From NCBI GenBank assembly GCA_900555785.1, contig USMO01000001.1, positions 1 through 47,033 on the forward strand: 47,033 bases of DNA, given 5' to 3'. Positions 1 through 46,987 of the stretch are shown piece after piece. This stretch comes from an uncultured Eubacteriales bacterium. GTDB taxonomy: Bacteria; Bacillota; Clostridia; Oscillospirales; CAG-272. How positions within the stretch are numbered: the stretch's first letter is position 1; every line of letters starts with the position of its first letter. The notes under the pieces are model-generated. The model saw nothing but the letters and a program-made list of their open reading frames with translations. It was not told the DNA's origin and did no database searches. The position numbers and the translations under genes were made by a program.

Positions 1-72
1 CGGCATCGGAAAATATTCGCCGGGGATGTCGCGGGCGTTGTGGTAATAAAATGTTTTATACTGTTTGCTCAA
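1..72 (-). CDS. partial CDS running off the left edge (first about 24 codons), product unknown
   Basis: The open frame LSKQYKTFYYHNARDIPGEYFPMP... starts at a TTG (72..70), 9 nt after AAGGAGG (rc of 82..88). It continues past position 1 and is too short to identify. Confidence 0.25.
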   Translation of the reverse strand, partial: MSKQYKTFYYHNARDIPGEYFPMP

Positions 73-207
73 TCATTGTTTCCTCCTTTTCAGTAAACTT
101 CTTTGAAGTCTTGAAACTTTCTTTCAAGAAAGTTTCAAGTGGGGTTCGGGGCAAGCCCCGAAAAAAATAAGAGTGCCGATCTCTCGACACTCTTGTGTAC
201 TGTTTTG

Positions 208-3138: not shown

Positions 3139-3405
3139 TAACTTTGCAACGTTTTTCGTGAATCATGGTTACACCGCCGTTTCATCGGTTGTTTCCTACC
3201 ATATATCCGAACGGATGGCGTATCACGAAACAGCGCAAAATGCACGCTATATCAGCGTTTTCGGGTATTTTTGCATGAATCGCAAAATAGGCAACTGTAA
3301 ATTTCGGCATCAAAAATGCTCTTATATGCAGACTTTTCACTTTTAAGAAAGGCTCCGCACTGGCTCTGTGCGAAGCCTTGAAAATCATTTTTTCACCGCT
3401 GGGGC

Positions 3406-3424
3406 TTTTTCTTTGCCTACAGCG
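3406..3424. repeat. core repeat copy R1 (TTTTTCTTTGCCTACAGCG)
   Basis: One mismatch to the 16-nt core TTTCTTTGCCTACTGC seen at five other sites. Its left flank TTTTCACCG is shared with R2. Confidence 0.7.
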
Positions 3425-3700
3425 AGGGAGATATTGGGGGATAACCATTTTAAAACCGGATGCAAAACAGGCATGTTATTACTGCTTTTCTCGGTATTAT
3501 CAATAGTTGAAACACTTTAAAAATGCATTATAATTCAGAACATCACGCTCCGTGTGAAATACGGCATACTCAATCATAACGAGGTGGAAAAAATAATTTA
3601 TATTTTCATTATTCACTATTGATTTCATCTAGGAATTGGTCTTTTATGGATCCAAAAAATTATTATTTTTCTTATAAATCCAACTGCAATTCTTTCACTA

Positions 3701-4906
3701 CTATTTTCGACGCTCTGGATACGCATGTTCTTGCACCATGCTTTCCAAATAGCAAGCAACCCTAACTAGCAACTTGATTTCTAAATATGGCATGGTTTTA
3801 ACATCAATATATACCCATTTTCGGGCAAACTCTTTTGAAAAGTCATCCGCTTGAGTCAATCCCCAAGACTCAGCATCATTGTTCTCGGTCAAAGATGTTT
3901 TATCTCCTAGGTAATCGAATATTTTTTCTAACTGGTAGTGTGCCATTTTATGCATTTGAGATGGGCGCCGAGTTATAGTGCTACAAATTTTTTCTACGCT
4001 CTCATAATCTAAATTGTCGACTGACATACACAATTCAGGGATTCTACCCACTATTTCGGCTCTGAATGTCTCAACGGCAGATATGTTGCGCAAGTCCGAC
4101 AAGCTACAACTCATATACTTTATAAAGTCGCGAATAGAGTAACATGTCTCATACCGTGATGTCAATATTTTATCTATCTCAATAAGAATCTCCACTGGTG
4201 ATTGATCTTGATTCACTTTAAACATGCGCCAATTATTTTCTGCATTAGCAACTTGTTCTTCGGCCCACTTTGTAGCTAATTCCAACTGTTCGTATTTAAA
4301 GCATATAAATTGCTTTAGTATATCAAATGGAAATTCTAAATCAATAATCTCTTCTGATTGATTTGAATAAATTCTCGCCCCAACTGCATTTTTTACACCA
4401 GAAAAAACAGATGAAATCCCATTCACAATGACCCATGGAGAGTATTGAACTTCATCTTTGTGCAAAAACTTTGGACGTCCAGTTCCAAATGGATGTGCAA
4501 ATATTAGAGAACGAATGTACTCAAAAAACTTATCATCCGTGGGTGCTTCGGCTTCTGGATTAAATATGCGAGATTTTTCGTAAATGAGTTTGAAATATTC
4601 TCTTTCCGAGTTTTGCTCAGGTATATTCAAAACAGAAAGAAGTTGCTTAACTGCATCGTAAACCATACAAGCAAACATCATAAATACGAGGAAATCTTCT
4701 TCGGAATCGGGTATATCTCCATATTTATTCAACTTTGCAATGCAAGTATCTAATCTATCCATTACAGCGCAACACAAATTGTACTGTGAAAGATATTTAG
4801 GATCATTCTCGAATATCGGAGAAGAGTTTATTGCATTGCGAAAATCGCAACAGTATTTTTTATCGAAATACAAATTATCTTTTTTAAAATCTTTTTTGTG
4901 TTTCAT
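3701..4906 (-). CDS. hypothetical protein, 401 aa, in a visibly AT-rich segment; possible HEPN-like R-x5-H motif
   Basis: Clean ORF with RBS AGGTGGG. Base composition is clearly lower in GC than the neighbouring genes. FEYIRSLIFAHPFG (nt 4493..4513) fits the HEPN Rx4-6H pattern, but I recognise no other family signature. Confidence 0.8.
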   Translation of the reverse strand: MKHKKDFKKDNLYFDKKYCCDFRNAINSSPIFENDPKYLSQYNLCCAVMDRLDTCIAKLNKYGDIPDSEEDFLVFMMFACMVYDAVKQLLSVLNIPEQNSEREYFKLIYEKSRIFNPEAEAPTDDKFFEYIRSLIFAHPFGTGRPKFLHKDEVQYSPWVIVNGISSVFSGVKNAVGARIYSNQSEEIIDLEFPFDILKQFICFKYEQLELATKWAEEQVANAENNWRMFKVNQDQSPVEILIEIDKILTSRYETCYSIRDFIKYMSCSLSDLRNISAVETFRAEIVGRIPELCMSVDNLDYESVEKICSTITRRPSQMHKMAHYQLEKIFDYLGDKTSLTENNDAESWGLTQADDFSKEFARKWVYIDVKTMPYLEIKLLVRVACYLESMVQEHAYPERRK

Positions 4907-4975
4907 TTTTGACCCACCTACTCAATCAAGCATCCTGCAATACAAACCATCAAATCTTATCATTCGAACATTTTG

Positions 4976-5392
4976 CTACTTATCGTTCCTCTGCCTATGA
5001 ATCTCTTTCAGATCCTCGATTGCCACTTCCGGGGCAAGAGTGTGAAAGATGAGCCAATTGCGGTTCATGGTCTCGGCAGGGGCTTGCTTATAGATTTCAC
5101 GGCTGTCCTCGCCAGTGGCGAAATGCCAGAAGCGATAAAGATATCCGCTCCAAAACAGCGTTTCTTTATCATAGACTTTCCCGCCGGGTGTCAGCTTTGC
5201 GGAATCGACCACTTCGGCAAGAAGGTACTCCTCGCCTGCCCATTGCAGGCGGTTATACTTTGAATCCAGCCCTTTGGCGGTTTCGGAGGTCATAAACGCT
5301 TTGATGAAGGTCGCGCTGTCATATCCTTTTGCGCCGGACAGTTCAAAAAGCCTGCCCTGGATATCACACAGTTTGAATTGAATGCCGTCCAT
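4976..5392 (-). CDS. hypothetical 138-aa protein, translationally linked to the upstream HTH-DUF3990-like gene (possibly DUF3791-like)
   Basis: The ORF has an AAGGAGG RBS overlapping the last codons of the upstream gene (stop at 5404, start at 5392). The family call is from memory of DUF3990/DUF3791 gene pairs and is uncertain. Confidence 0.75.
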   Translation of the reverse strand: MDGIQFKLCDIQGRLFELSGAKGYDSATFIKAFMTSETAKGLDSKYNRLQWAGEEYLLAEVVDSAKLTPGGKVYDKETLFWSGYLYRFWHFATGEDSREIYKQAPAETMNRNWLIFHTLAPEVAIEDLKEIHRQRNDK

Positions 5393-5403
5393 GGTTTCCT
5401 CCT

Positions 5404-6267
5404 TTACTTGGCTTCGTCGAGAATTTCGTCAAAAAATTTGCCGTCGCGGCGATAGTTTTTGCAAATATCATTGGCAAGTGAAACGCCCTTCTGGCGGTTC
5501 GCGTCACTCTCGTCCTGTAAAAATCTGCGTTCCAACAAAGAAAGCGGTATCTCTTTTTCAATGCGGACAGCGGCGCACGCCTTTTCGGTGGTGGCAACAT
5601 ATTGCTTTCCGAGCTTGAGCGCGGACAAGCTGTTCACAAGCGCCATGTCTGTAATCACGCCGGTAAAGAAATTGTCGAGGACATAGAACATCCTGTCGTT
5701 TGCGATGCTGCCGATGACAATATCTTTTCCTGCGTCGATCTTACTGTATTTATCATAAAGTGCCGTGCCTTTGATCTGTTCCATTCTGCCGCGATGGTAG
5801 GCAACGAGCATTGCCCAGTCAAGATCGGCTTTGATTTCGATCGTGTCAAGGTTTTTCATATCGACGGAGACAACATAGAATTTGGATTTTTCAAAATCGC
5901 AGATCAGAGTCAGCGGCTGACCCGGGTCGGTACCCATATAAAAGCCCTTACCGAAATCACACATTTCACGACTCTTCGGAGCAATCTCGCCGACAATACC
6001 GGACTTTGAACCGTGGTAAAGCAGTATTCTGTCTCCATCGAGGGAGACTGCATCGGCATCTGCTTTGATTTTTTCAAGAATCATCTGATAAACGGGAACA
6101 CCATGCTCCTTGCAGTATTCATAAAGGGTTGTCTGTGCCAGTTTGGTCGGAATCGCACGACCGTTTTCCCAACGGTTGACGGTTGCAAATGTGACACCGA
6201 TTTTATCCGCAAATTCGGTTTGGCTCAGCCCCAAGTATTCTCTTATGCTTTTAATCAGTTTCCGCAT
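5404..6267 (-). CDS. HTH-XRE domain fused to a DUF3990-like (ADP-ribosyltransferase-clan-like) domain, 287 aa
   Basis: The N-terminus IREYLGLSQTEFADKIGVTFATVNRWENGRAIP is a classic XRE helix-turn-helix. The C-terminus has LYHGS...DFGKGFYMG...VIGSIANDRMF...LGKQYVATTEKA, which resembles the DUF3990 consensus as I recall it. I chose the ATG at 6267 (GGAGG 5 nt upstream) over the longer ORF-track start at 6291. Confidence 0.7.
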   Translation of the reverse strand: MRKLIKSIREYLGLSQTEFADKIGVTFATVNRWENGRAIPTKLAQTTLYEYCKEHGVPVYQMILEKIKADADAVSLDGDRILLYHGSKSGIVGEIAPKSREMCDFGKGFYMGTDPGQPLTLICDFEKSKFYVVSVDMKNLDTIEIKADLDWAMLVAYHRGRMEQIKGTALYDKYSKIDAGKDIVIGSIANDRMFYVLDNFFTGVITDMALVNSLSALKLGKQYVATTEKACAAVRIEKEIPLSLLERRFLQDESDANRQKGVSLANDICKNYRRDGKFFDEILDEAK

Positions 6268-6402
6268 TGATACCTCCGGCCAATATAACAAATTATATTA
6301 AAGTTATTATACCAGATGTCATATCAAATGTCAATGCTACTTGCGGTATTTGTTGCATGATTTTGTCAGATATTTTTCACCGTAGGCGAAAAATGTTCCG
6401 TC

Positions 6403-6420
6403 TTTTTCTTTGCCTACTGC
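6403..6420. repeat. core repeat copy R2 (TTTTTCTTTGCCTACTGC)
   Basis: Exact copy of the 16-nt core. Confidence 0.75.
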
Positions 6421-6498
6421 GGCGTAAAATAAGTTTTTTTGAAGTTCTATCGGAACTATATGCGGAACTATACCGTCGCGTTTTTGGGTATTGTTCCG

Positions 6499-6531
6499 AT
6501 AGAAAAAGGACAGGCGATTTTGCCTGTCCTT
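6499..6531 (-). terminator. orphan rho-independent terminator (minus strand)
   Basis: A 10-bp stem, AAGGACAGGC/GCCTGTCCTT (6506..6515 / 6522..6531), is followed on the minus strand by TTTTTCT. No minus-strand gene lies upstream of it. Confidence 0.45.
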
Positions 6532-6590
6532 TGGGTACAACATCTGATAAAAAGGTATAAATACGAATTTTTGCCGCATGCTATGTCGGC

Positions 6591-6671
6591 ATCGAAAGAT
6601 TCCTGCTTGACCCGATAGCCGTTTCGTGATGTGCCGACGGAATTTGAAAATCCGTTTTCTTTGCCTACTGC
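6591..6671. repeat. repeat copy R3 (modules A+B)
   Basis: GGCATCGAAAGATTCCTGCTTGACCCGATAGCCGTTTCGTGATGTGCCGACGGAAT...GTTTTCTTTGCCTACTGC aligns along its length with 17551..17630. Confidence 0.75.
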
Positions 6672-6763
6672 GCCTCAACCTTTGCGTTGTGAATGAGTTG
6701 ACTTCCAACCGATTTTATGCTATACTGAAGGCAGAAAAAAGCATCTTGAACGGAGGCACGCGA

Positions 6764-7009
6764 ATGACTAAAGATATTGTAAAGTCTGTTGTGGATAAAG
6801 CCGATCCGATCGGGTTGCTTGGGATGTGTTGCCCGGCAGATGAATATGATTCCGAAATCGAGATAATTTTTGCACGCATCCGAAAAGGCATGTCCGCAGA
6901 CGAAATTGCCAAGGTCATTCATGCCGTGTTTCTTGAAATGTTCGGCGAGTCAATTGACACTAAGCTCTGTGACACCATGGCATGCGAAATGCTATCACTT
7001 GATTGCTGA
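6764..7009 (+). CDS. small hypothetical protein, 81 aa
   Basis: ATG at 6764 preceded by GGAGG. The sequence MTKDIVKSVVDKADPIGLLGMCCPADEYDSEIEII... is protein-like. The longer 127-aa ORF-track start has no RBS. Confidence 0.55.
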   Translation: MTKDIVKSVVDKADPIGLLGMCCPADEYDSEIEIIFARIRKGMSADEIAKVIHAVFLEMFGESIDTKLCDTMACEMLSLDC

Positions 7010-7144
7010 CCACATCTTTGACCACTTACGGCTTCGGACTACCCGGATTCAGTGCCGCGAAGAGCACACGAAAGCAGTCAATCCGGACTAAAAAGCCCCG
7101 AAAAGCCCGTAAAATCACGTAAAAAATCAGGTTTTTAGCGTTTG

Positions 7145-7185
7145 GGACTTCGATGCCGTCGGTTCGAATCCGGCCACTCCGACCA
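7145..7185 (+). other. tRNA 3'-end-like fragment 1 (T-arm + acceptor 3' strand + CCA); no 5' half present
   Basis: GTCGG-TTCGAAT-CCGGC (7158..7174) forms a canonical T-arm. It is followed by CACTCCG-A-CCA (7175..7185). The complementary 5' acceptor CGGAGTG is absent upstream. Confidence 0.55.
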
Positions 7186-7449
7186 TATCGAGTGTTCGTA
7201 ACAAAATTCAATTATGAGCACTCGTTCACTTTGCTTCTTATTTTTTGTTTGGTGCTTAAATTCGAAAGCCTTGACACTGCTGAAGTATTTTCTCTCAGTT
7301 TCAGCGCGCTGGAACTCGTAATGTCCTTTATAGAACTTACCGGAGGTATGAATATGGATGCAAATATTGTGGTGGGAATCGGTTGTTATGGGGGAAGACC
7401 TGGCAATAGAGTCATTGCAATCAAACGAAAGCCATACCAAATAAAAATC

Positions 7450-7491
7450 TGAAGATAAACCGAAGTGGGTTCAATCCCCACACCCCCACCA
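7450..7491 (+). other. tRNA 3'-end-like fragment 2 (T-arm + acceptor 3' strand)
   Basis: GTGGG-TTCAATC-CCCAC (7465..7481) is followed by ACCCCCA (7482..7488). No cloverleaf can be built from the preceding about 75 nt. Confidence 0.5.
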
Positions 7492-7509
7492 AATCGCGGA
7501 TTTCCGCGA

Positions 7510-7539
7510 AGCCGCAGAGTGCAGTGCTCTGCGGCTTTT
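7510..7539 (+). terminator. rho-independent terminator just after tRNA-like fragment 2
   Basis: AGCCGCAGAG-tgcagtg-CTCTGCGGCT followed by TTT. This is the arrangement typical of the native 3' flank of a tRNA gene. Confidence 0.6.
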
Positions 7540-7582
7540 GCTTTACAAGGGTTGAAATCAAGATCAAACATTTTATCATTAT

Positions 7583-7622
7583 TTTTTGCCTACTGCAACG
7601 CAATTTTTAAGGTTTGACAGCC
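7583..7622. repeat. repeat copy R4 (core B with one T deletion + module C + degenerate hairpin)
   Basis: TTTTTTGCCTACTGCAACGCAATTTTTAAGGTTTGACAGCC aligns with 9123..9162 and 17614..17653. Confidence 0.7.
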
Positions 7623-7716
7623 ACGAATTATATAAACAGAGTAATAGCTCAAGTCACGGTGCAGTATATTGTTTTTCTTTGAAATTTTGCTAAAGCAAGC
7701 AAAGACAAAAGCTACT

Positions 7717-8907
7717 TCAGTACGTTTGTAATTCCCTGCAAATCACACATTTATCCAATCTTTCAAAAAGCGAATCGAATCTCTTGTCTGCTCTCATGCT
7801 ATCAAACCAGGCATGCCGAAAGGCTTTTTGATAATCGAGCGGCATGATCCAATCCCACCACTCATGACACTGCGTGCTGATTTCCTTGTATTCTTTCCCT
7901 TCTCTCTCATTCCAATTGATTTTGCATTCCAAAGCAAATCCTTTCAACGCGGGAGACAAACAGCCTAGTTTGAATGCATCCTCGGTGACAGACATGATCT
8001 GTTCAATCACGCGCAAGGTGTCTTCAAATGCATCATAAGCTTCATCCATCTTTTCAAGTTTGGCAAAAGAAGCTGTATATCGTATGCCAAGATCTATCCT
8101 TTCCGGACACCACAGATCCACGCCTGTTCCGCCGCTGATCAAATGCTTCCTGTCGGGAAACAGATTGTTTACGGCATTGAGATAATGGAGCTGTGTTTCA
8201 CAAAACCAAATAAAATGATTTGGGTCGTCGCACAAATAGACTTGCCAATCATTCGCCGCACTTATGATACGCGAAAGCTCCATCCATAGAATGTACTGCC
8301 GCACAGGCTCAATTTTGTCAAGTTCCTCACGCATTTTATATCGGGTGAACAGTAATTCAGAACGCGACATGTCCTCACGGCTGGCATAAGCGTCCAAAAA
8401 AGCATCGATGTGTTCATCATCTTCCATGTTTGCCATACACTCAATCACATCATATTGCTCGTTTTTGGGGCACACTCTGCATATTTCCTCTAACAAAAGC
8501 CGCATTTCTTCAAGAACATTTTGGTCTTGAAACAAGCGTGCTTTACAAATTTCGGTGTACATTCCCCAAAAACAATATTGTTGATAATCCTTGAGATTAC
8601 GTCGTATTTCCCGCATGATCTCAACGGTTTTCCGAACATCTTTTGCACGAACAGCAGCTTCAAACGATTCTTGAAGTTCCGAGCAGCGTTTCTTCTTCTC
8701 TTCTTCTGAGACCCCAAGCAACGAATCTACCGACGTTTCAAAAAATGATGCGATCATGGGCAGCATCTCAATATCGGGATAAGTAGCACCTATTTCCCAT
8801 CGAGAAATAGCCTGTGGAGACGTTCCGAACTTTTCAGCCAATTGTTCTTGAGTAAGATTCATTCGTTGTCGGTTTAAACGTATTTTATTCCCCAAATTCA
8901 ATTTCAT
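7717..8907 (-). CDS. XRE-family HTH regulator with a long helical (TPR-like) C-terminal domain, 396 aa
   Basis: The N-terminus LTQEQLAEKFGTSPQAISRWEIGATYPDIEML is an XRE helix-turn-helix. RBS GGAGAT. GC content is lower than in the flanking sugar genes. Confidence 0.8.
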   Translation of the reverse strand: MKLNLGNKIRLNRQRMNLTQEQLAEKFGTSPQAISRWEIGATYPDIEMLPMIASFFETSVDSLLGVSEEEKKKRCSELQESFEAAVRAKDVRKTVEIMREIRRNLKDYQQYCFWGMYTEICKARLFQDQNVLEEMRLLLEEICRVCPKNEQYDVIECMANMEDDEHIDAFLDAYASREDMSRSELLFTRYKMREELDKIEPVRQYILWMELSRIISAANDWQVYLCDDPNHFIWFCETQLHYLNAVNNLFPDRKHLISGGTGVDLWCPERIDLGIRYTASFAKLEKMDEAYDAFEDTLRVIEQIMSVTEDAFKLGCLSPALKGFALECKINWNEREGKEYKEISTQCHEWWDWIMPLDYQKAFRHAWFDSMRADKRFDSLFERLDKCVICRELQTY

Positions 8908-9120
8908 ACCATATCTCCATTCTGTCCGTATTTGCGCAAATCCAATGTTTTACCGGCAATAATAGTATACCATATGTTATAAGCAGAATCAAGCGCACAG
9001 TTTGTGAGATTTTTTCTCAATATGTGAGAGAAGTAAGTTTGGCCTTGGCAAATTTCCATGACGATAGAAAAACGGCTTGTGCCATAGTTACAGCACAATC
9101 CGCTTTCTTTTTTTGGAAGG

Positions 9121-9178
9121 CTTTTTCTTTGCCTATTGCAACGCAATTTTTAAGGGCTGACCGAGATAGTCAGCCCTC
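9121..9178. repeat. repeat copy R5 (core B + module C + hairpin D)
   Basis: 54 of 58 nt are identical to 17612..17669 by hand alignment. The hairpin is GGGCTGAC (9154..9161) / GTCAGCCC (9169..9176). Confidence 0.8.
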
Positions 9179-9286
9179 GTTTTTTGCGTTTGCCTTGATT
9201 TCCGCAATCTCCTTTTTCATCTCCGCAATCAGCACCTTGAGCTTTTCCTCGCGCTCCTCCCGTGTGGTGGCGTACAATGCTGCTTT
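9170..9286 (-). pseudogene. integrase N-terminal (arm-type DNA-binding) domain fragment, 5'-truncated
   Basis: Translates as KAALYATTREEREEKLKVLIAEMKKEIAEIKANAKNEG*. It aligns with the C-terminal 34 aa of the ORF at 17678..18034. It has no start codon, and an in-frame stop lies at 9287..9289. Confidence 0.6.
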
Positions 9287-9290
9287 TTAA

Positions 9291-9421
9291 GTTTATCTTG
9301 CCGTAGCCGCTGTCGATAAGCAACGCCCGTTCGTTTCCGATAAGCAATACATTTTGACAAGACCGAATGCGCCCCATTCCGAAATCCGATAGGTATTTTC
9401 CGCTAACTTTTTCACTGCCAT
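9291..9421 (-). pseudogene. MBL-fold hydrolase-like N-terminal fragment, frameshifted and 3'-truncated
   Basis: An ATG lies 1 nt after the rhamnosidase stop. It reads MAVKKLAENTYRISEWGAFGLVKMY, then one frame over LLIGNERALLIDSGYGKINLK. That resembles the beta-lactamase-fold N-terminal strand pattern. The reading frame ends at the junction with the integrase fragment. Confidence 0.4.
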
Positions 9422-9422
9422 T

Positions 9423-11981: not shown

Positions 11982-11984
11982 TTC

Positions 11985-13847
11985 TCACACTCCCTTTGCT
12001 TCCAGTTCCGCTTTGACTTTCGCTCTGTACGCTTCACCTGCGGCAAGCTCGCGCTGCCATGCGGCTTCCTCCGCTTCGGCACGTCTTGCTTCCTTTTGCT
12101 CCTTCTTCAACCGATCCTCCGGAGAGAGCGCAGCAAGCCTTTCCTCTTTGCGAGCCTTGGCTTTTTCGGCTTTTGCCTTCTCTTTTTCTTCGGCAAGACG
12201 CTTCTTTTCTGCTGTCTTTGCTGCTTTTTCCGCTGCCGCCTTTTGATAGTCTGCAAGTTCCTTTTCAAAATCCAGCCCTTTCGCTGCGCATTTTTCCTTC
12301 AATGCCGCTTCAAAGGCAAGCTCGTTTTCCCGCAGATAGGTTGCTTCCGCCTCTGCCGCGCGGACTTCCGGCGCAACCCATTCTTCGCCGCGTGCCGCCG
12401 CTTCCGCCCTCTGGTATTCGCGGATTTTTGCCTGCTTGCGCGAGAGTGTTTTTTCAACCGTCAGGAAAATCAACAAAACGGCAAGGACGATGCCGGTGAT
12501 CGTTTCCAGTCCGACAAACGAGAAGGTGATCATATTTTTGACTGCCTGCGACTGCTCTGCAGCAACCGTCACACCGTCCACCAGCTTCGGCGCAATATAT
12601 CCGGCTTTGGAGATCAGCGCATTGAACAGACTGGTCGATACGCCGATCGTCGCCACGGCAAGAATGTTGTAAATGGACATTGCCACGCCGTCTGAGCGCA
12701 CGCCGCTTTTCCATTCGAGATGGTCAAGCCCATCGGCAAAGAGTGCCATGAACACATAAGCGCAGGGCAGCCCGCCGATGTTTTTGATGAACTGTCCGGC
12801 AAGAACAACCGCCATGTTCGTTGGCGCAGCCCAGCAGATGGCACTGCCGAGCGCATAGAGGATAAATCCCGCAAGCGTCACATTCCGCTTGCCGAATTTC
12901 TTTGCCAGCGGCCAGACGGCAAAAATGCCGATGCCCATGGGAATGCCGCCGATGACCGAGATCATCGTCTGCGTCACGCCGTCGTTATATGTGCCGAGGA
13001 CATAATTGCAATAATAGACAAGCCCGATGTTTTTCAGCGACGTGCCGAGGGTATAGATGAAGAAATAGACAAACATGAGAATCATGTATTTGTCGGTCAG
13101 CACGATTTTCAGCTGCGTTAGAAAAGGCAGCTTTTTTTCTTCCGTGCCGGACTGCTCCTCCGTCACGCGCTCCTTTGTAAAGTAATATTCAAGGAGCGTC
13201 AGCGGCAGGGAAAGGATGGAAAGAACGCTCATCACGAGAATCCATTTGGTCTGATCCACGCCGAGCATCGGCATAACCACCATCGGGAAAATCAGTGCCA
13301 CGATGATGCCGCTCATCATAATGGTGGAAATCTGATTGAAAACCGAAAGTCCGCCGCGCTGAATCGTGTTGCGTGTGGAGAGCGGACACATCAGGTTGTG
13401 CGACATATTGTAAATCGTGTATGCCAAAGAATAAAACAGGTTGTAGGACAGCATGACCCAGATGACCTGAACCGTTTCGCCCGCGTTCGGGACGGTGAAA
13501 AGCAGAATTCCCGTCAGCGCAACGAGCGGAGCGGACAGCAGAAGCCACGGACGCGCCTTGCCCTGTTTGGTCTTGGTGCGGTCGATGATATACCCCATCA
13601 GCACATTGGTGACTGCATCGATGATTTTCGACATCAGCGGGAAGACAACGAGAAACGCGCCGCCCCAAACGGTGGTCAGCTTCAGAACATCGGTATAATA
13701 GACGTTCAGATAGGTTGCAAGCACGGCGTTCAGCAGAAGCGCGCCGCAGGGACCGAGCAGGTAGCCGAGCCATTTTTCTTTACCCGTGACATTCTGCGAA
13801 TGGATCCGGCTGTCAAACAGTTTTGCAGATAACATCCCGTTTTTCAT
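11985..13847 (-). CDS. GPH-family (MelB/XynP-like) glycoside:cation symporter with a about 152-aa Lys/Glu/Ala-rich C-terminal tail (620 aa)
   Basis: Multi-TM protein beginning [31 protein letters not shown]. The ATG at 13847 overlaps the GH3 stop (ATGA). The ORF-track extension to 13949 lies inside the GH3 gene and was rejected. Confidence 0.85.
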
Positions 13848-16267
13848 GATTCGTCCGCTCCTTTGATTTTGTAGGATTGACACATCGCGGCGATACCGCG
13901 GATGAGATGCCCGTTTCCGAGCTGTACAAAGCCTTCCGCAATGTTCCACGGCATAGATTTTCCTGCCGAAAGGGAAAGCGTGCGCACACAGTTGGTATCA
14001 AAAATCCGTTGCAGGAAGATGGCGCCCTTGATCCGGTTGTCCCGTTCCGGTCCCGCAGGCAGCTTCTTTGCTTTTTTCAGTTGTCTCTTTGCGACCCCGC
14101 ACACGGCGTTATAAAGAATTCTGCCCATAAACGTTTTCCGGAAATCGCAGAAGCGGCTTTCCATGGTCAGGGGCAATACGGGCGGCTCATCGGGGAGCGG
14201 CGTGCCGAGCAAATCGGCAAACGCCGCATTGTCGACGGGCTTTGCACCTTTCATTTTTTCGTTGACGCTGTCCGGATAAGGCGACGTTGCCGTCACACCC
14301 TCCGCTACCGTCAGCGGTGCGGTCAGACGGATATCCTCGCTCGACGCGCCGACTTCAATCGTATATTCTCCGTTTTCAAGTGTCCATGAATTGGTTTTGA
14401 TATTCCAAAAAGACAGTTCTGACAAAGCACACGAGAGGGTGACAACCGTTTCTTCTCCCGCTTTCAGATAGACTTTCCGGAATGCACGCAGTTCGCTTTC
14501 CGGCTTGAAAACGGCAGAATTTTCATTGTTTTTCACATAAAGCTGGACAACCTCCGCGCCGTCACGGTTGCCCGTGTTGCGAACGGTCAAAGTTGCCGTT
14601 ACAATCCCGTTTTCGCTTGTCACGGCAAGGTTTTGGTATTCAAAATCTGTGTAGGACAGTCCGAATCCAAACGGGAATGCAGGACTGACCTTCGCTGTTT
14701 TCGCATAGCGGTAACCGACAAAGACGCTCTCCTTGTAAAACTCATTTGCTTTTTTGCTGTATTCTTCGCCGTAAAGAACATCGGCATAGTGTTTGTACCA
14801 GGTCTCCGCCAGCTTTCCGGAGGGATTGGCTTCGCCGAAAAGCAGTCTCGCCCCCGCTTCTCCGCCGCACTGCCCCGGCAGATAAAGGTTCAAAATGGTG
14901 TTAACACCGTCTGCAAACGGAAGCTCTACAGGCGATCCACCCGAAAGCACGACGACAATCTTTTTGCCCGTTTTTATCAGAGCATTGACCAGTTTCAGCT
15001 GATCGTCCGGAAGGCGCATATGCGCTCTGTCCCCTCCCTCGCTCTCCGCAAGGTCTGTAAGCCCGAGATAGAGAAGAACGGTATCATATTTTTCCGCGAG
15101 GGCAACCGCTTCCGCAATCGGTTCGCCTTCCGCAGGGTCAACACCCGCGCTGTAACCGCGCGCATACCCGTATTTTATCCCGCGCGCATCGAAAGCGTCC
15201 TTGTGCGAAACAACCTTTGTCGGCGAAATCATCGAACTGCCGGAGCCCTGATAGCGCATTTTTTCAAACAGTTCACCGATGACACAAAGCGGCTTTGTGC
15301 CGTCCAGCGGCAGCGTGCCGTCGTTTTTCATCAGCACCGCGCTGTCCGCCGCAACGCGAGCGGCAAGCTCCGCGTGACCGTCACGGTCAAACGATTCCGT
15401 TTTTGATGCGGTTGCGAACTTCTCGGTCGCCGCAAGGATGCGGGTTACGCAGGCGTTGGCTTCGTCCCCGGAAAGGCTGCCGTCCGAAAGCGCGTCATAG
15501 ACCTTTTTCAGGCTGACCGCCGTATCGCCCGGCATTTCGAGGTCCTCTCCGGCGCGGATTCCGGCAATACGGTCATGCGTGCCGCCCCAGTCGCTCATCA
15601 CGATGCCGTCAAAGCCCCACTCATCGCGGAGAACATCGGTCAGAAGCCATTTGTTTTCGGAAGCAAAGGTGCCGTTGATGCGGTTGTAGGATGACATGAC
15701 CGCGCCGGGCTTTCCTTCCTTTACGGCCGTTTCAAACGGTTTCAGATAAATCTCCCGGATTGCCCGTTCGTCTGCAACGGAGTTGCCGACAAAGCGGAAG
15801 TTTTCCTGATTGTTGAGCGCAAAGTGCTTCAGGCAGGCACTCACGCCCATGGACTGCACGCCGCGCACGAACGCCGCGCCGAACTTTCCCGCAAGGAGCG
15901 AGTCTTCGCTGTAATATTCAAAATTTCTGCCGCAAAGCGGATTGCGCTTGATGTTGACACCCGGTCCGAGAAGCATATGCACCCCGTAATACCGACATTC
16001 CTCACCGATTGCCCGCCCGATTTTTTCGGCATTTTCGGGATTCCAGGAGGACGCCACGCACGCCGCCGTCGGAAATGCGGTTGCAGGTTCGCTTTTGGAA
16101 ACTCCGTTGTCTCCGCCGCCGATCTGCTTGCGCAGTCCGTGCGGTCCGTCCGCCATTGCGAGTCTCGGAATGCTCTGTCGCGGTACTCCGCTGGTGTACA
16201 TAAAATCCGTTCCCTGCAAAAGGGCTGCTCTTTCTCTGTCTGTCAGTCCGGAAGCCTGATTTTTCAT
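13844..16267 (-). CDS. glycoside hydrolase family 3 beta-glucosidase-like enzyme (807 aa)
   Basis: [13 protein letters not shown] near the N-terminus and the nucleophile region GIVMSDWGG are GH3 hallmarks. Confidence 0.9.
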
Positions 16268-16326
16268 AGGTAGACCCCTCCCGATTTTATTCTGCTTCCA
16301 TTATATCACCCGGCGACATTTTTGTA

Positions 16327-16355
16327 TTGCATTATTGTATTGATTGTGGTATAAT
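16327..16355 (+). promoter_or_regulatory. promoter of the AraC gene (TTGCAT-N17-TGgTATAAT), embedded in TTGTATTG repeats
   Basis: Extended -10 TGGTATAAT at 16347..16355 and -35 TTGCAT at 16327..16332. The ATG at 16379 follows GAGGTG. Confidence 0.55.
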
Positions 16356-16378
16356 TGTATTGAATCGAGGTGACGGAG

Positions 16379-17557
16379 ATGAAAAACATCGATCTGGAGT
16401 ATCTGTGTTCTGTGATTGCGGGGCTTTCGGGCATTCCCGTGCGGATTTTTGACGGGGACACTCCTGTTTATTATTCCTTTGTCGGCAGGCTTCCGCGAGA
16501 CCCGATGGTGATCTGCAAAAACGAAATTTTTGCGATCGAGAAGAATATCGGTTACTATATGACCGCGCAGTTTCAGTATTATGGCGTTGTCAGGCGCGGG
16601 AAAACGAGGATCGTAATGGGACCGACAAGACAGGTGACGGTCAGTGATGCGGAGCTGCGCTCGCTTGCGTTTCTTGCCGATGTCCCGACCGATGACACCG
16701 ACGATTTTGTCGCCGGAATGAAAAGCATTGTCCCCATGCCGCTGGAAAGCGTGATGCAGACGCTTTGCGCCGTCAATTACATTCTCAACGGGGAGAAGGT
16801 ATCGCTTGCCGACCTGACGATTTATGACGAATTGCAAACAGACTTTTCCTCTCAGATGGCAGCTGAAAAAACGGATGCTCCGGCAGATCTGCATAACACG
16901 CTGTCGCTTGAACAAACGCTGATGAGCATGATCCGCAAGGGCGATACCGCGGCGCTTTCGGAATGGGCAAAAAATGCGCCTGCGATCAGGGGAGGAGTCA
17001 TCGCCTTTGACCAGCTGCGCCAGATGAAGAATCTGTTTATCGTTTCCGTTACGCTTGCCTCGCGTGCCGCGATCAGAGGAGGAATGGATGCGGATGACGC
17101 GCTGATGCTCTCCGACAGATACATTCAACGTTGCGAGCTGATGAACACCGCGGAGGAGATCACAAATCTGCAATTCCACATGATTTCGGATTATACCGCG
17201 CGTGTGGAGCGCCTGCACATCGGAAACGACCCGTCGCAGCTTGTCAGCGCTGTATCAAACTACATTCAGCACCACCTCTCCGAGCCGATCACAACAGAGC
17301 AGATTGCCGCTTCGCTTTATATCAGCCGCACACATCTGTCCGCCCGTTTTCATAAGGAAACGGGGATAACCCTTTCGGACTATATTCTGAAAGAAAAAAC
17401 GGAGGAGGCAAAACGCCTGCTCCGTTATACCGACAAATCTCTTGCGGCGATTTCCGCCTATCTCGGCTTCTCATCGCAGAGTCATTTTTCAAGAACCTTC
17501 CGCAAATATGCCGGCATCACCCCCGGCGAATACCGCGCAAAGCACGCGGGGCATTGA
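16379..17557 (+). CDS. AraC-family transcriptional regulator (about 392 aa)
   Basis: The C-terminus has IAASLYISRTHLSARFHKETGITLSDYILKEKTEEAKRLL...LGFSSQSHFSRTFRKYAGITPGEYR, a dual HTH_18 signature. It is divergent from the GH3 operon. Confidence 0.9.
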   Translation: MKNIDLEYLCSVIAGLSGIPVRIFDGDTPVYYSFVGRLPRDPMVICKNEIFAIEKNIGYYMTAQFQYYGVVRRGKTRIVMGPTRQVTVSDAELRSLAFLADVPTDDTDDFVAGMKSIVPMPLESVMQTLCAVNYILNGEKVSLADLTIYDELQTDFSSQMAAEKTDAPADLHNTLSLEQTLMSMIRKGDTAALSEWAKNAPAIRGGVIAFDQLRQMKNLFIVSVTLASRAAIRGGMDADDALMLSDRYIQRCELMNTAEEITNLQFHMISDYTARVERLHIGNDPSQLVSAVSNYIQHHLSEPITTEQIAASLYISRTHLSARFHKETGITLSDYILKEKTEEAKRLLRYTDKSLAAISAYLGFSSQSHFSRTFRKYAGITPGEYRAKHAGH

Positions 17558-17669
17558 GAGATTCCTGCTTGACCCTACGGCTGTTTCGTGATGTGCCGAC
17601 GGGAATCCGACCCCGTTTTCTTTGCCTACTGCAATGCAATTTTTAAGGGTTGACCGAGATAGTCAGCCC
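17551..17669. repeat. repeat copy R6, the longest (modules A+B+C+hairpin D); overlaps the last codons of the AraC gene
   Basis: The A part aligns with 6591..6653. The B-C-D part aligns with 9121..9178. The hairpin ACGGG-AATCCGAC-CCCGT has a compensated counterpart in R3, ACGGA...TCCGT. Confidence 0.8.
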
Positions 17670-17677
17670 TCTCTTTC

Positions 17678-18034
17678 TTATGCGTTCTTCACTTGCTTTT
17701 TCATGACTGCGATTTCCGCTTTCATCGCTTTTATCAGCTCTGCCAGTTTTTCCTCGCATTCCTCTCGTGTCTTAGCGTACACGTTCTTGGATATTCGCTT
17801 GCCGTTAACTCTCGGCGTGAACCGCCCTTCATACAGGTGGTCGTTTATCATCGTCACGCAACCCGTGCCGGGTTTGCGTATCTTGCCGCCGATAGGCTTA
17901 TACGGCTCAAATTTCGGCTCTGTCGGCTGATCGGTTGCTTCACTGTCACTTGTCTTGTCCGTTGCGGTCGGCTCGGGAATGGGCGTGTCTGCCCCCGCAA
18001 TCTCGCGGTCAATTCTCGCCGCCGCCTGCTGCAT
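17678..18034 (-). CDS. integrase N-terminal arm-type DNA-binding domain only (118 aa); no catalytic domain
   Basis: ...GTGCVTMINDHLYEGRFTPRVNGKRISKNVYAKTREECEEKLAELIKAMKAEI matches the AP2-like Arm-DNA-binding N-domain of Tn916/phage-type tyrosine integrases. The ORF stops immediately before hairpin D. The in-frame upstream sequence (to 18142) is coding-like but lacks a start codon. Confidence 0.6.
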   Translation of the reverse strand: MQQAAARIDREIAGADTPIPEPTATDKTSDSEATDQPTEPKFEPYKPIGGKIRKPGTGCVTMINDHLYEGRFTPRVNGKRISKNVYAKTREECEEKLAELIKAMKAEIAVMKKQVKNA

Positions 18035-18239
18035 CGTGTCGGTGATATGGCTATCAATATTGAGCGTCCTCTCGCTTGTCGATGGATCGTTTTTTCCACC
18101 GTCTCGGGTGACGGTCGTGGCTCCTTTTTTGTACGGAATGGCTTAACGTTGGATTATTTCAGCGAAATATTCTTTGGTTGGATAACGGATACAATGGTGT
18201 CTCCGGGGGCATGCTATTGGAAAAAGGAGATGAAACAAC

Positions 18240-18548
18240 ATGGTTACAACCGTCACCGATTCCACGTTTAGCGCCGAGGTGCTTGGCGCGCAGGAAGCTG
18301 TTTTGGTCGATTTCTGGGCTGCCTGGTGCGGTCCCTGCCGCTCGCTGGCGCCGATTTTTGAGGCTGCCTCGAATGAGATTGCCGGGGTCAAATTCTGCCG
18401 TCTGAATGTAGACGACTGCCCGGAGACTGCCGGCCAGTTCGGGATTCTGTCCATCCCGACTCTGGTGCTCTTTCGCGCAGGAAAAGCCGTCAAAACCGCC
18501 TCTGGCACACACACCAAGCAGCAGATTCGTCAGTTTCTGACCGAATAA
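18240..18548 (+). CDS. trxA: thioredoxin
   Basis: 102 aa with the WCGPC active site (DFWAAWCGPCRSLAP). RBS AAAGGAG. Confidence 0.95.
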   Translation: MVTTVTDSTFSAEVLGAQEAVLVDFWAAWCGPCRSLAPIFEAASNEIAGVKFCRLNVDDCPETAGQFGILSIPTLVLFRAGKAVKTASGTHTKQQIRQFLTE

Positions 18549-37378: not shown

Positions 37379-37409
37379 TTTTTTATCCGTCTTGGATAGT
37401 GATTGACTG
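37379..37409. repeat. 31-nt direct repeat, copy 1 (TTTTTTATCCGTCTTGGATAGTGATTGACTG)
   Basis: 30 of 31 nt are identical to 46957..46987. Confidence 0.85.
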
Positions 37410-37512: not shown

Positions 37513-37593
37513 ATAAAATTCAAATCGCCCCGGGCAGCTCCCCCTCCGGATTCGCCAAACGTCCCAAATTCCGAACCGCCCGAATCATCCAAA

Positions 37594-37702
37594 AACTTTC
37601 CTCAGCCGGGGCTTTTCCTCCCCAAAGTGCGACGCACTCTGTAAATTCCAGCTCCCACATAAATTCTAACGCACTGTAAAAAAGCCCCGGCTGAGGAAAG
37701 TT
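37594..37702. repeat. 23-bp perfect inverted repeat separated by 63 nt
   Basis: AACTTTCCTCAGCCGGGGCTTTT (37594..37616) is the exact reverse complement of 37680..37702. On the minus strand the hairpin is followed by TTTTT. Confidence 0.85.
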
Positions 37703-37830
37703 CGGGGAGGATGAGGGAGGTTTGGAGGGAGAAGGCGTCGCGAAGCGACGGTAGCGGCTTGCCGCGTTGACCCCTACCCGAAAGGGGGTCCCTTCTCCCT
37801 CCAAGACCTTTTCTTTCCCTTCACCCCTCC

Positions 37831-46956: not shown

Positions 46957-46987
46957 TTTTTTGTCCGTCTTGGATAGTGATTGACTG
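46957..46987. repeat. 31-nt direct repeat, copy 2 (TTTTTTGTCCGTCTTGGATAGTGATTGACTG)
   Basis: 30 of 31 nt are identical to 37379..37409. Confidence 0.85.

Follow-up and report, generated by a model that had tools for sequence, protein, structure and literature searches.

Six direct repeats in a 15-kb region of an Oscillospirales contig are probably att sites of one IME family stacked by tandem accretion

The window that we analysed is a stretch of 47,033 nt of DNA from an uncultured Oscillospirales bacterium. A pattern search of the window with the 16-mer TTTCTTTGCCTACTGC gave six matches within 3408–17632, all on the plus strand, in line with the single orientation that the initial annotation had described, where 0.04 would be expected by chance; none of 100 shuffles gave six. 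The copies (R1 to R6) start at 3408 (one mismatch), 6405 (none), 6656 (none), 7581 (two), 9124 (one), and 17617 (none). The first three positions agree with those given initially and the other three had been placed 1–4 nt away, at 7585, 9125, and 17616. The statement that each copy has at most one change is right for five copies but not for R4, the core of which reads ATTTTTTGCCTACTGC. We also made an att profile from approximately 60 related sites and ran it on the whole 47 kb. This recovered exactly these six copies (E of 2e-10 to 1e-6), with the next-best match in the window at E = 1.4 and no further copy found by profile search in the remaining 29 kb, which is ordinary chromosome. The core is thus not dispersed in the way that had been thought to argue against a role in recombination. 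The 16-mer is the best-conserved, left part of an att site of about 30–40 nt that continues with nnnGCAAATTTTGAGGG.

The left end of the window (1..3442, minus strand) is the distal 3.4 kb of the backbone of an integrative mobilizable element (IME), and includes a 976-aa ORF at 208–3138 and the arm next to R1. It is 93–94% identical to loci L024, L025, and L068, where its counterpart is the far end of an element of about 9.1 kb that carries HTH_36, a MobL/MobP3 relaxase, and two tyrosine recombinases. At L118–L127 the same backbone runs on into the relaxase and the recombinases Int1 and Int2. The IME of which 1–3442 forms the far end is probably intact, with the rest lost at the contig start. 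No intact gene for a recombinase, as noted initially, or for a relaxase is present in the window. For the recombinase this is probably an effect of assembly: the window spans an entire contig, the first base of which already lies within the element. R1 (3408..3442, plus strand; pattern and profile matches) consists of the att copy TTTCTTTGCCTACAGC and a constant right part, GAGGGAGATATTGGGGGAT, and is the distal junction between the IME backbone and variable cargo. The core plus about 22–25 nt follows the IME arm in 19 of 19 metagenome junctions and also at L024, L025, L068, and L118–L127, and at least seven unrelated contexts come after this R1-type site.

Between R1 and R2 lies an AT-rich cassette (3443..6404, minus strand) with three genes, encoding a protein of 401 aa (3701–4906), a protein of 138 aa (4976–5392), and a protein with the Pfam domains HTH_3 and DUF3990 (5404–6291). 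Its GC content of 0.35–0.39 (at 3–5 kb) compares with 0.49–0.58 in the rhamnosidase cluster described below, which bears out the contrast in composition noted previously between intervals. PADLOC candidate families for this cassette are PDC-M42A/M13 and PDC-M42B, making it a candidate for defence cargo. It adjoins the IME in all ten of the ten contigs carrying the 401-aa protein; at L099 the same slot holds a 7.9-kb cassette with PDC-S53 and a type II RM system. R2 (6405..6420, plus strand; pattern and profile matches) has one right flank and three left flanks (one in the window and L118, another in L015, and a third in L099), the change from one to another falling at the core's left edge. The sequence TTTTCACCG occurs beside both R1 and R2 as claimed, but its distance from the core differs (12 versus 25 nt) and we found no support for it as meaningful.

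The segment from R2 to R3 (6421..6655, plus strand) is a remnant in which a feature scan marked tandem CGGAAC-type 12-mers at 6451–6474, a hairpin at 6508–6529, and, at 6588–6655, the left module of about 65 nt that is common to R3 and R6. The same interval is 1.6 kb long in L118, with an AAA_14/DUF4143 gene, and 2.7 kb long in L122–L125, with an extra Abi_C gene. R3 (6656..6671, plus strand; pattern and profile matches) has one right flank and two left flanks (L118 and L122). The segment from R3 to R4 (6672..7580, plus strand) holds a sigma70-like promoter (6698–6726), a DUF1871 ORF (6764–7009), a second tRNA-like 3' end (7465–7491), and a terminator-like hairpin (7510–7539). The tRNA fragments reported here are real: 7140–7185 matches the 3' half of a gene for tRNA-Pro(UGG) at every base, and this half is kept at the same place in L118, L121, L122, and L124.

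R4 (7581..7618, plus strand) is the att copy with two mismatches followed by AACGCAATTTTTAAGGTTTGAC, a stub of 22 nt from the recombinase-side arm. In L068 the sequence ahead of this right flank is different, being the region downstream of tRNA-Pro. The XRE cassette (7597..9123, minus strand) contains a 396-aa HTH_3 (XRE-type) gene at 7717–8907, and its right end (about 9044–9123) resembles native sequence downstream of tRNA-Pro; L124 is without this cassette, R4, and R5. R5 (9124..9177, plus strand) and R6 (17617..17670, plus strand) each have the att copy and the recombinase-side arm with a hairpin, at 9153–9177 and 17646–17670, respectively. Although AACGCAATTTTTAAGGTTTGAC is common to R4, R5, and R6 as described initially, the hairpin assigned to all three is lacking from R4.

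To the right of both R5 and R6 we found a 3' remnant of an Int2-type tyrosine recombinase gene, neither of which is in the initial annotation. The first (9170..9280, minus strand) retains the last 36 or so codons and the stop; its translation, LYATTREEREEKLKVLIAEMKKEIAEIKANAKNEG*, matches the C-termini of recombinases P0051 and P0033, and its DNA is 83–95% identical to the int 3' ends of L019–L029. The second (17678..18079, minus strand) retains the end of the catalytic domain and a C-terminal extension of about 120 aa, with Asp where the catalytic Tyr is expected. It is 82% identical to residues 349–473 of the 482-aa Int2 of L123 (E of 3e-71), and its homologues carry PF00589. Between them, the R5–R6 unit carries cargo at 9281..17549 (minus strand), with genes for a rhamnosidase (9423–11981), an MFS_2 transporter (11985–13949), and a GH3 protein (13844–16267) on the minus strand and an AraC regulator (16370–17557) on the plus strand. 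The left module of R6 (17550..17616, plus strand) overlaps the AraC stop codon. The module shared by R3 and R6 is real, with 89% identity between 6588–6640 and 17550–17602 (about 85 nt at 85% by BLAST), and is also found ahead of R3-type sites in L016, L099, and L118. The inverted 13-mer from it at 3222–3234 grows to 18 nt with two mismatches; this pattern occurs three times where 1.4 matches are expected, and three or more arise in 15 of 100 shuffles, so it stays marginal as first called. R6 is kept in all related strains covering the site, and the chromosomal thioredoxin gene follows its remnant at 18240.

Complete IMEs of this family are about 9–10 kb long and encode two paralogous tyrosine recombinases (two PF00589 genes, 39% identical), a MobP3/MobL relaxase (MobL, 8.9e-25; MobP3, 277 bits with the cut-off at 150), small HTH proteins, and a protein of about 970 aa; conjugation pore genes were absent from the IME. 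The small HTH proteins include an HTH_17 excisionase-like protein, seen in L118–L127, and Int2 has a C-terminal extension, its C-terminus repeating the arm-binding-like motif. We compared 241 genomic stretches that code for relatives of the recombinase, with 75 loci usable for counting the distance to att. The usual position of att is about 50 nt beyond the stop codon of Int2: in 56 of the 75 loci a profile match lies 17–149 nt (median about 49) past the end of the int match, and in these 56 every match has one orientation relative to int. Direct att copies flank whole elements at L024 (1703 and 10829), L025, L028, L042, and L068. The first tRNA gene beyond int is tRNA-Pro in 54 of 80 loci; it is convergent with int in every case, and in 24 of those 54 att is 25–190 nt from its 3' end. 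The family has its home site immediately downstream of tRNA-Pro(UGG). Int1 and Int2 would act on the att site, the two half-sites of which are unlike, perhaps as a hetero-complex; the crossover would fall inside the 16-mer, and any of the six sites may still be active.

Cassette-level variation of the kind that the initial reading called for does exist between strains. Strains and species differ by whole segments or cassettes with breaks at the att site, and the swapped segments carry defence systems. The flank downstream of tRNA-Pro is joined to at least four different right flanks and the 65-nt module to two. Each break coincides either with the left end of the 16-mer or with the right end of the approximately 30-nt site, and the two sides have no other homology. 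Window positions 161–6584 are 95% identical across contigs with different neighbourhoods, and homologous recombination between such conserved neighbours could be the source of some swaps.

These data make it very likely that the six repeats are att sites of one IME family of gut Clostridia (Oscillospirales-type MAGs), stacked by tandem accretion. Repeated site-specific recombination at one att-like site, as proposed initially, is supported by the link between the site and a recombinase gene and by the whole elements lying between direct copies. A single IME would have integrated by site-specific recombination and more elements would have entered the att sites flanking residents, so that units stack head to tail. 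Later deletions would have taken the recombinase and transfer genes out of older units; what would remain are CIME-like segments that lack a recombinase, are bounded by att, and retain their cargo. The array would then be several IMEs, most of them decayed and many with anti-phage defence genes, adjacent to one another on the downstream side of a tRNA-Pro gene. In this explanation R1–R2 and R2–R3 are defence-type cargo segments, R4–R5 is an XRE-regulator segment, R5–R6 is a decayed unit with 36 Int2 codons left and a rhamnoside-utilisation cluster as cargo, and a 400-nt Int2 stub lies between R6 and the chromosome. Recombinase remnants are limited to R5–R6 and the R6 stub, and we assume that the other segments also descend from full elements. 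Segments could be reassorted between strains by recombination at the sites, through resident or incoming Int1/Int2 in trans, or between homologous arrays. Some observations count against this explanation. The window lacks an intact recombinase or relaxase gene, and the metagenome search described below gave no circle or element-to-element junction. In addition, the R1-type site is never reassorted, with the same 22–25 nt after the core before divergence in 33 of 33 copies, a constancy not expected if crossover simply took place inside the 16-mer.

The initial annotation had left open whether the array arose by tandem accretion or is integron-like. Accretion fits the remnants at R5 and R6, R1 as an IME junction, and the swaps at the site. 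As an alternative, the IME recombinases could capture and shuffle free, recombinase-less, mostly defence cassettes at IME-borne att sites, with the R1-type site as a fixed docking site and the array built cassette by cassette rather than from decayed elements. Same-orientation sites do separate unrelated cassettes, there are at least seven different defence cargos after the constant R1-type site, the window, L099, and L015 have different cassettes in the R1–R2 slot, and most segments have no recombinase remnant. However, the remnants at R5 and R6 are what accretion followed by decay predicts, and the recombinases fall far short of the integron-integrase cut-offs (54 bits where 265 are needed, and 39 where 435 are) and are thus not integron integrases. 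AttC-like hairpins are not enriched at the sites, cassettes are multi-gene and on both strands, some with their own promoter-like sites, and neither cassette circles nor the second copy of the 25-nt R1 right part expected downstream after insertion was seen. A strict integron is not supported by these scores, hairpins, and multi-gene cassettes, and we consider the capture of free cassettes unlikely.

Less likely again is that the sites are inactive fossil att scars in a hotspot where segments are swapped by homologous recombination through the IME backbone, conserved inter-site stretches, or the chromosome after DNA transfer. Long conserved blocks such as 161–6584 beside variable segments, the invariance of the R1-type site in 33 copies, and degenerate sites (two mismatches in R4, three in the R2-type copy of L099) would fit this. 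So would a search of the metagenome collection for an excised-circle or element-to-element junction (element arm, core, and recombinase-side arm), which gave 0 matches where the same element arm had 19 integrated junctions. Breaks exactly at site edges, between sides that otherwise lack common homology, and one short site with dozens of unrelated flanks in more than 50 species-level genomes argue against it. A terminator, REP-like element, or regulator-binding site recurring between genes was suggested by the T-run that opens the core and by the hairpin ahead of the core at R5 and R6, because of which a scan calls terminator-like sites there. Pre-core hairpins are no commoner than at random positions (51/101 versus 61/101), no Rfam family match was found at the site, six copies lie within 15 kb and zero in the other 29 kb, and the site is tightly linked to the recombinase gene 3' end in other genomes. 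Such a generic repeat is effectively refuted.

The structure is of a known kind and the IME family appears not to have been described yet. Integration, decay, and accretion leading to cis-mobilizable remnants is a published model, and tandem accretion of ICEs and IMEs with CIMEs, such as the ICESt1/ICESt3-CIME arrays of Streptococcus thermophilus, has been reviewed (PMC5704250). As in those arrays, directly repeated att sites lie between successively integrated units, older units lack integrase and transfer genes with att sites and cargo kept, and hybrid sites have arms from different units. By contrast, the site here is intergenic and downstream of tRNA-Pro, where those arrays use a protein-coding gene's 3' end. 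The elements here are also small IMEs, each with a recombinase pair and a MobP3/MobL relaxase, and up to six sites occur in 15 kb. The available part of PMC12084326 describes ICE/IME tandems in Faecalibacterium, from the same broad host group (Oscillospiraceae-type gut Firmicutes), with up to four elements, remnants included, tRNA-linked sites, and adaptive or defence cargo. The IMEs in that part have relaxases of groups MOBQ2, MOBV1, MOBP7, and MOBP1 rather than MobP3/MobL with a recombinase pair, and it holds no description of a family with this combination. Two tandem tyrosine recombinase genes rather than one are also found in the "Tyr duo" IMEs MTnPi1-3 of Prevotella intermedia, a different phylum; compared by description in the available part of PMC5704250, that pair is distantly related and the paralogues here are 39% identical.

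Integron cassette arrays similarly have same-orientation sites that split unrelated, often defence-related cassettes beside a tyrosine recombinase platform, but here there is no IntI-type integrase, there are no attC-like folded sites, and the cassettes are multi-gene, some with promoter-like sites, with integrase remnants in some units. The best matches of the recombinases among solved structures are Tn916/Tn1549-type integrases (6emy; E of about 1e-11). In both, SAM-like and catalytic domains come after an N-terminal arm-binding-type motif; they differ in that two recombinases are present here, Int2 with a second arm-binding-like motif at its C-terminus. Tn916 prefers AT-rich targets with low specificity, whereas the IME here is specific for a defined site of about 30 nt.

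Six copies of the 16-mer core TTTCTTTGCCTACTGC are present in the window, all of them on the + strand, with starts at 3408 (R1), 6405 (R2), 6656 (R3), 7581 (R4), 9124 (R5) and 17617 (R6). R2, R3 and R6 match it exactly, R1 and R5 each have one mismatch and R4 has two; by chance, 0.04 copies would be expected. The initial annotation had the number and strand of the cores right, but its coordinates were off by up to 4 nt and it allowed R4 only one change. A profile search with about 60 related sites (the att profile) returned the same six sites only from the 47 kb (E 2e-10 to 1e-6; next best E = 1.4), and the remaining 29 kb lack any further copy. Right of the core, R4, R5 and R6 share AAYGCAATTTTTAAGG as had been described, but the hairpin GGGYTGACCGAGATAGTCAGCCC that was said to follow in all three is present in R5 and R6 only. 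The left module of about 65 nt common to R3 and R6, the differences in base composition between the intervals and the lack of an intact recombinase gene in the window were all confirmed. For TTTTCACCG, reported as common to R1 and R2, the offsets from the core differ and we found no support for a meaning. An inverted 13-mer at 3222-3234, taken from the left module, extends to 18 nt with 2 mismatches, yet is not significant.

Across loci, conservation spans TTTCTTTGCCTACTGC nnn GCAAATTTTGAGGG, and the 16-mer is therefore the left part of a longer site (about 30-40 nt) with two unlike halves. A short inverted match (TTTGC / GCAAA) within the site was noted by eye. Core positions 1 and 4 covary with the left flank, and position 14 covaries with the right flank, being T by the recombinase arm and A by GAGGGAG. 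Because of this covariation, any crossover would be expected to fall inside the 16-mer. No known RNA element accounts for the site: Rfam searched at gathering thresholds gave no match in the whole window. Enrichment of 8-mers in 250-nt flanks, used to look for arm-type sites, yielded just words derived from tRNA-Pro, words of the native flank downstream of tRNA-Pro and the hairpin on the side of the recombinase gene (int).

A 118-codon ORF lies right of R6 on the minus strand (17678-18034; open back to 18142). Its homologues number more than 1,300, and in the longer ones a Phage_integrase domain precedes the part that matches. The ORF aligns with residues 349-473 of a full-length 482-aa relative, the Int2 recombinase of locus L123 (82% identity, E 3e-71), and has NIDSH in place of the catalytic motif NIYSH. 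Right of R5, the minus strand has a similar remnant, the C-terminal 36 residues of such a protein, with stop codons before them. Thus both sites lie about 45 nt past the stop of a truncated tyrosine recombinase gene reading towards the core. Searches of the other four intervals revealed no Int2 3' remnant. On its far side from R6, the stub of about 400 nt adjoins thioredoxin and ordinary chromosome. A C-terminal domain of about 60 aa in Int2 repeats the protein's own N-terminal arm-binding-like motif, GxGxV..YEGR..K.I.A.T.EECEEKL (window 17678-17860; L123 13934-15382). The two copies are 44% identical (E 1e-7), and such a motif at both ends of one tyrosine recombinase is unusual. The R6 remnant ORF retains exactly this C-terminal domain, and an alignment of seven homologues shows the Met in front of it to be invariant; by a rough estimate, an open frame of its length is not improbable by chance.

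Relatives of the recombinase were sought by scanning one genome per species. This found 241 stretches, 80 of which were fetched, and nearly all of these 80 loci are MAGs labelled Clostridia, Eubacteriales or Oscillospiraceae. Among the 75 loci with enough downstream DNA, 56 have an att-profile match 17-149 nt (median about 49) past the end of the int match, and the orientation relative to int is identical for every match in these loci. A second att copy in the same orientation lies 9-10 kb upstream in several loci (L024, L025, L028, L042 and L068). Between the att copies of L024 are a 976-aa protein and two small ORFs without family matches, an HTH_36 protein (Pfam), a relaxase (MobL PF18555, 8.9e-25; NCBIfam MobP3, 277 bits against a cut-off of 150) and two adjacent tyrosine recombinases (PF00589), Int1 and Int2; the same pair is present in L118-L127. 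Int1 and Int2 are paralogues (39% identical), and their closest solved relatives are Tn1549-type integrases and Xer proteins. Other copies of the element have extra genes for an HTH_17 protein and a RelE/HTH pair. No conjugation pore or type IV secretion families were detected among the element's genes in L024 and L118-L127. The related loci show three of the features by which an integrative mobilizable element (IME) is defined (PMC5704250), namely its own recombinases, a relaxase without VirB4 or coupling protein, and direct att repeats. Judged by gene content, two recombinases and a relaxase without a pore are the anatomy of an IME. The 976-aa protein has no exact protein match on record; a 1022-aa protein of L015 is not homologous to it and is a type I restriction subunit.

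Positions 1-3442 of the window are the far, non-recombinase end of this element, including the 976-aa gene (93-94% identical to L024, L025 and L068), and R1 is its distal junction. Apart from this end, the IME content of the window consists of the two recombinase 3' remnants. Because the same backbone runs on into relaxase, Int1 and Int2 in ten other contigs, and the window is a whole contig, the missing recombinase is most simply explained by an assembly break inside a repeated element. By definition, an IME also excises and is mobilised by a helper conjugative element, and an indirect test of this was negative: in metagenome contigs, the pattern of element arm, core and int-side arm (an attP-type excised or tandem junction) had 0 matches, and integrated junctions with the same element arm were found 19 times. 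Apart from a single 490-nt match with 71% identity, plasmid and phage collections contained no relative of the element. Many recombinase matches in L019-L098 lie only a few kb from the end of a contig, and among the database homologues there are many 130-150-aa fragments on very short contigs, as expected for a multi-copy element that breaks up metagenome assemblies. A few of these loci are binned to Alistipes, Akkermansia or Sphaerochaetaceae, probably by mis-binning.

The first tRNA gene beyond int is tRNA-Pro in 54 of the 80 loci (anticodon UGG in 50), at a distance of 0.1-6.3 kb and in every case convergent with int; in five loci it is tRNA-Val. An att site is 25-190 nt from the tRNA 3' end in 24 of these 54, and in 10 loci two or three sites separate int from the tRNA. 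These data place the family's home just downstream of tRNA-Pro(UGG), where small arrays are common.

Within the window, the segment R1-R2 holds three AT-rich genes, two of which match the candidate defence families PDC-M42A/B. R2-R3 is a 235-nt remnant; in other genomes, an AAA_14/DUF4143 gene with or without Abi_C occupies this interval. At 6451-6502 in this segment are two tandem 12-mers, CGGAACTATATG and CGGAACTATACC, with an inverted copy, GTATTGTTCCGATAG; four tandem copies occur in L015 and L118, and in L016 the 12-mers are just upstream of an AAA-ATPase gene. They may serve as operator or as accessory binding site. R3-R4 contains a DUF1871 ORF and, at 7140-7185, a 46-nt 3' half of tRNA-Pro(UGG) that starts in the anticodon loop, is identical to the tRNA gene of L068 and is conserved in the corresponding position in L118, L121, L122 and L124. 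Another 3' end of tRNA type (T-arm and CCA) follows 280 nt on, at 7465-7491. Both pieces look like att scars of a different type of integrase that would target the tRNA gene itself. R4-R5 holds an XRE-type gene, and R5-R6 holds the 36-codon Int2 remnant followed by rhamnosidase, MFS, GH3 and AraC genes. On the minus strand at 16301-17218, a 305-aa ORF without a family match overlaps the AraC gene (16370-17557, +) and is probably a spurious antisense ORF. None of the five segments between neighbouring cores contains a recombinase or relaxase domain, as in cis-mobilizable elements (CIMEs). Descent by deletion from an ICE or IME, as for a CIME, is shown for R5-R6 and for the stub right of R6 through their Int2 3' remnants.

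Cassette-level variation between strains had been proposed as a test of recombination at the cores, together with combinatorial flanks; both were found, and the breaks fall at the sites. In contigs 96-100% identical to the window, R6 and the stub are conserved and the DNA further left differs. R2 in the related contig L015 has the same right flank and an unrelated left flank, with the break at the core's first base, and there Fic and a type I restriction subunit replace the three-gene cassette. The R1-R2 slot of L099 holds PDC-S53 and a type II restriction-modification (RM) system. R3 has two different left flanks (L118, L122), and the R4 slot has a different left flank in L016. In L124, R4 and R5 are absent and the break is exactly between ...TTTTTAA and the hairpin, which is the right edge of the site of about 30 nt. 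At least four different right flanks follow the core where it adjoins the native flank downstream of tRNA-Pro. In one strain (L001), the rhamnosidase is 832 aa vs 852 aa and has no C-terminal domain match (window 9423-9644; L001 18477-18618). Synteny in L001 breaks at window position 9624, beside a 22-nt direct repeat (9428-9449, 9623-9644); past the break are HAD hydrolase and AraC genes instead, and R1-R5 are absent.

The R1-type boundary behaves as a hotspot for defence cargo. In 33 of 33 copies, GAGGGAGATATTGGGGGAT(GAAA) comes directly after the core and the sequences then diverge into at least seven contexts, and every examined context is defence cargo: Hachiman and type I RM (L113), type I RM (L114), a type IIG-like enzyme (L101), PDC-S31 and an Eco57I-like enzyme (L102), PDC-S53 and type II RM (L099) and, in the window, the PDC-M42-like genes. 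The IME backbone always ends in an R1-type core and the same 22-25 nt (window 3424-3442; L099-L117). This does not fit simply with a crossover inside the 16-mer. R1 may be a frozen internal scar, with a mobile unit that reaches further right. Alternatively, the constant sequence may be carried by a preferred target, or R1 may be a dedicated docking site.

Several other explanations for the array were considered. It does not qualify as an integron by integrase type, attC folding or the make-up of its cassettes. Int2 scores 54 bits against a cut-off of 265 for integron integrases (TIGR02249) and 39 against 435 (NF011946), and Int1 scores lower. Integron attC sites fold, whereas hairpins adjoin the core at 51 of 101 sites here vs 61 of 101 random controls, and the half-sites are unlike. 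Integron cassettes are mostly promoterless single ORFs in one orientation that depend on a common promoter. By contrast, the cassettes here have 1-4 genes on both strands and their own strong sigma70-like sites, for instance at 6334-6306 (12/12 matches) and 6698-6726. Use of the host XerC/XerD at a single chromosomal dif site is opposed by the six sites in 15 kb and by the family's own recombinases: against XerC/XerD cut-offs of about 330, these reach 65-67 bits. A dispersed REP or terminator repeat is opposed by the empty 29 kb and by the linkage to int in 56 of 75 loci (this contig and the fetched loci). R5 and R6 look terminator-like, but over 101 distinct left flanks, hairpins ending at the core are not above those at random positions.

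The best-supported account of the array is a three-step scheme of integration, decay and accretion for IMEs, as set out in two papers (PMC5704250; PMC12084326). An IME would insert site-specifically downstream of tRNA-Pro, residents would decay to att-bounded remnants and newcomers would use a flanking att site for their own insertion. The segments would later be reassorted by recombination between sites or arrays. The site is associated with the recombinase, with its remnants and with the breakpoints; Int1 and Int2 probably act on it, perhaps as a hetero-complex on the two half-sites, and the elements may be mobile today. The initial annotation had proposed repeated recombination at an att-like site, with tandem accretion as one of two options, which agrees with this scheme and makes coherent biology. 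The array works like tandems of ICEs or IMEs with CIMEs, with IME features on the related loci and CIME-like remnants as well. The principle of tandem accretion is already established. In the literature we found neither the core sequence in a relevant context nor a description of this IME family. It is conceivable, though we consider it improbable, that the array is more than a graveyard of decayed elements and acts as a working integron-like exchange platform. Int1 and Int2 would then recombine the sites of about 30-40 nt in trans, defence cassettes lacking a recombinase would be captured, reordered and exported with the IME, the R1-type site (core and constant 25 nt) would be the docking point, and the duplicated C-terminal arm-binding-like domain of Int2 would help to tell site types apart.

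This analysis assigns a defined recombination site, and a region for insertion downstream of tRNA-Pro(UGG), to a widespread family of small mobilizable elements. Its recombinase is encoded in at least 241 stretches of genomes from uncultured gut Clostridia, and in these bacteria the att-bounded, strain-variable cargo includes restriction-modification, Hachiman, Fic, several candidate defence systems and a rhamnoside-utilisation cluster. The site can be used to delimit such islands in fragmented metagenome assemblies, accounts for contig breaks at the locus and is a simple in vitro substrate for a two-recombinase system.

A 31-nt repeat, TTTTTTRTCCGTCTTGGATAGTGATTGACTG, is present at 37379-37409 and 46957-46987 (97% identity). 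Because the second copy is 47 nt from the right end of the contig, it may belong to a further repeated element at which the assembly broke. Close to the first copy, at 37570-37726, is an inverted repeat whose arms are 47 nt long.
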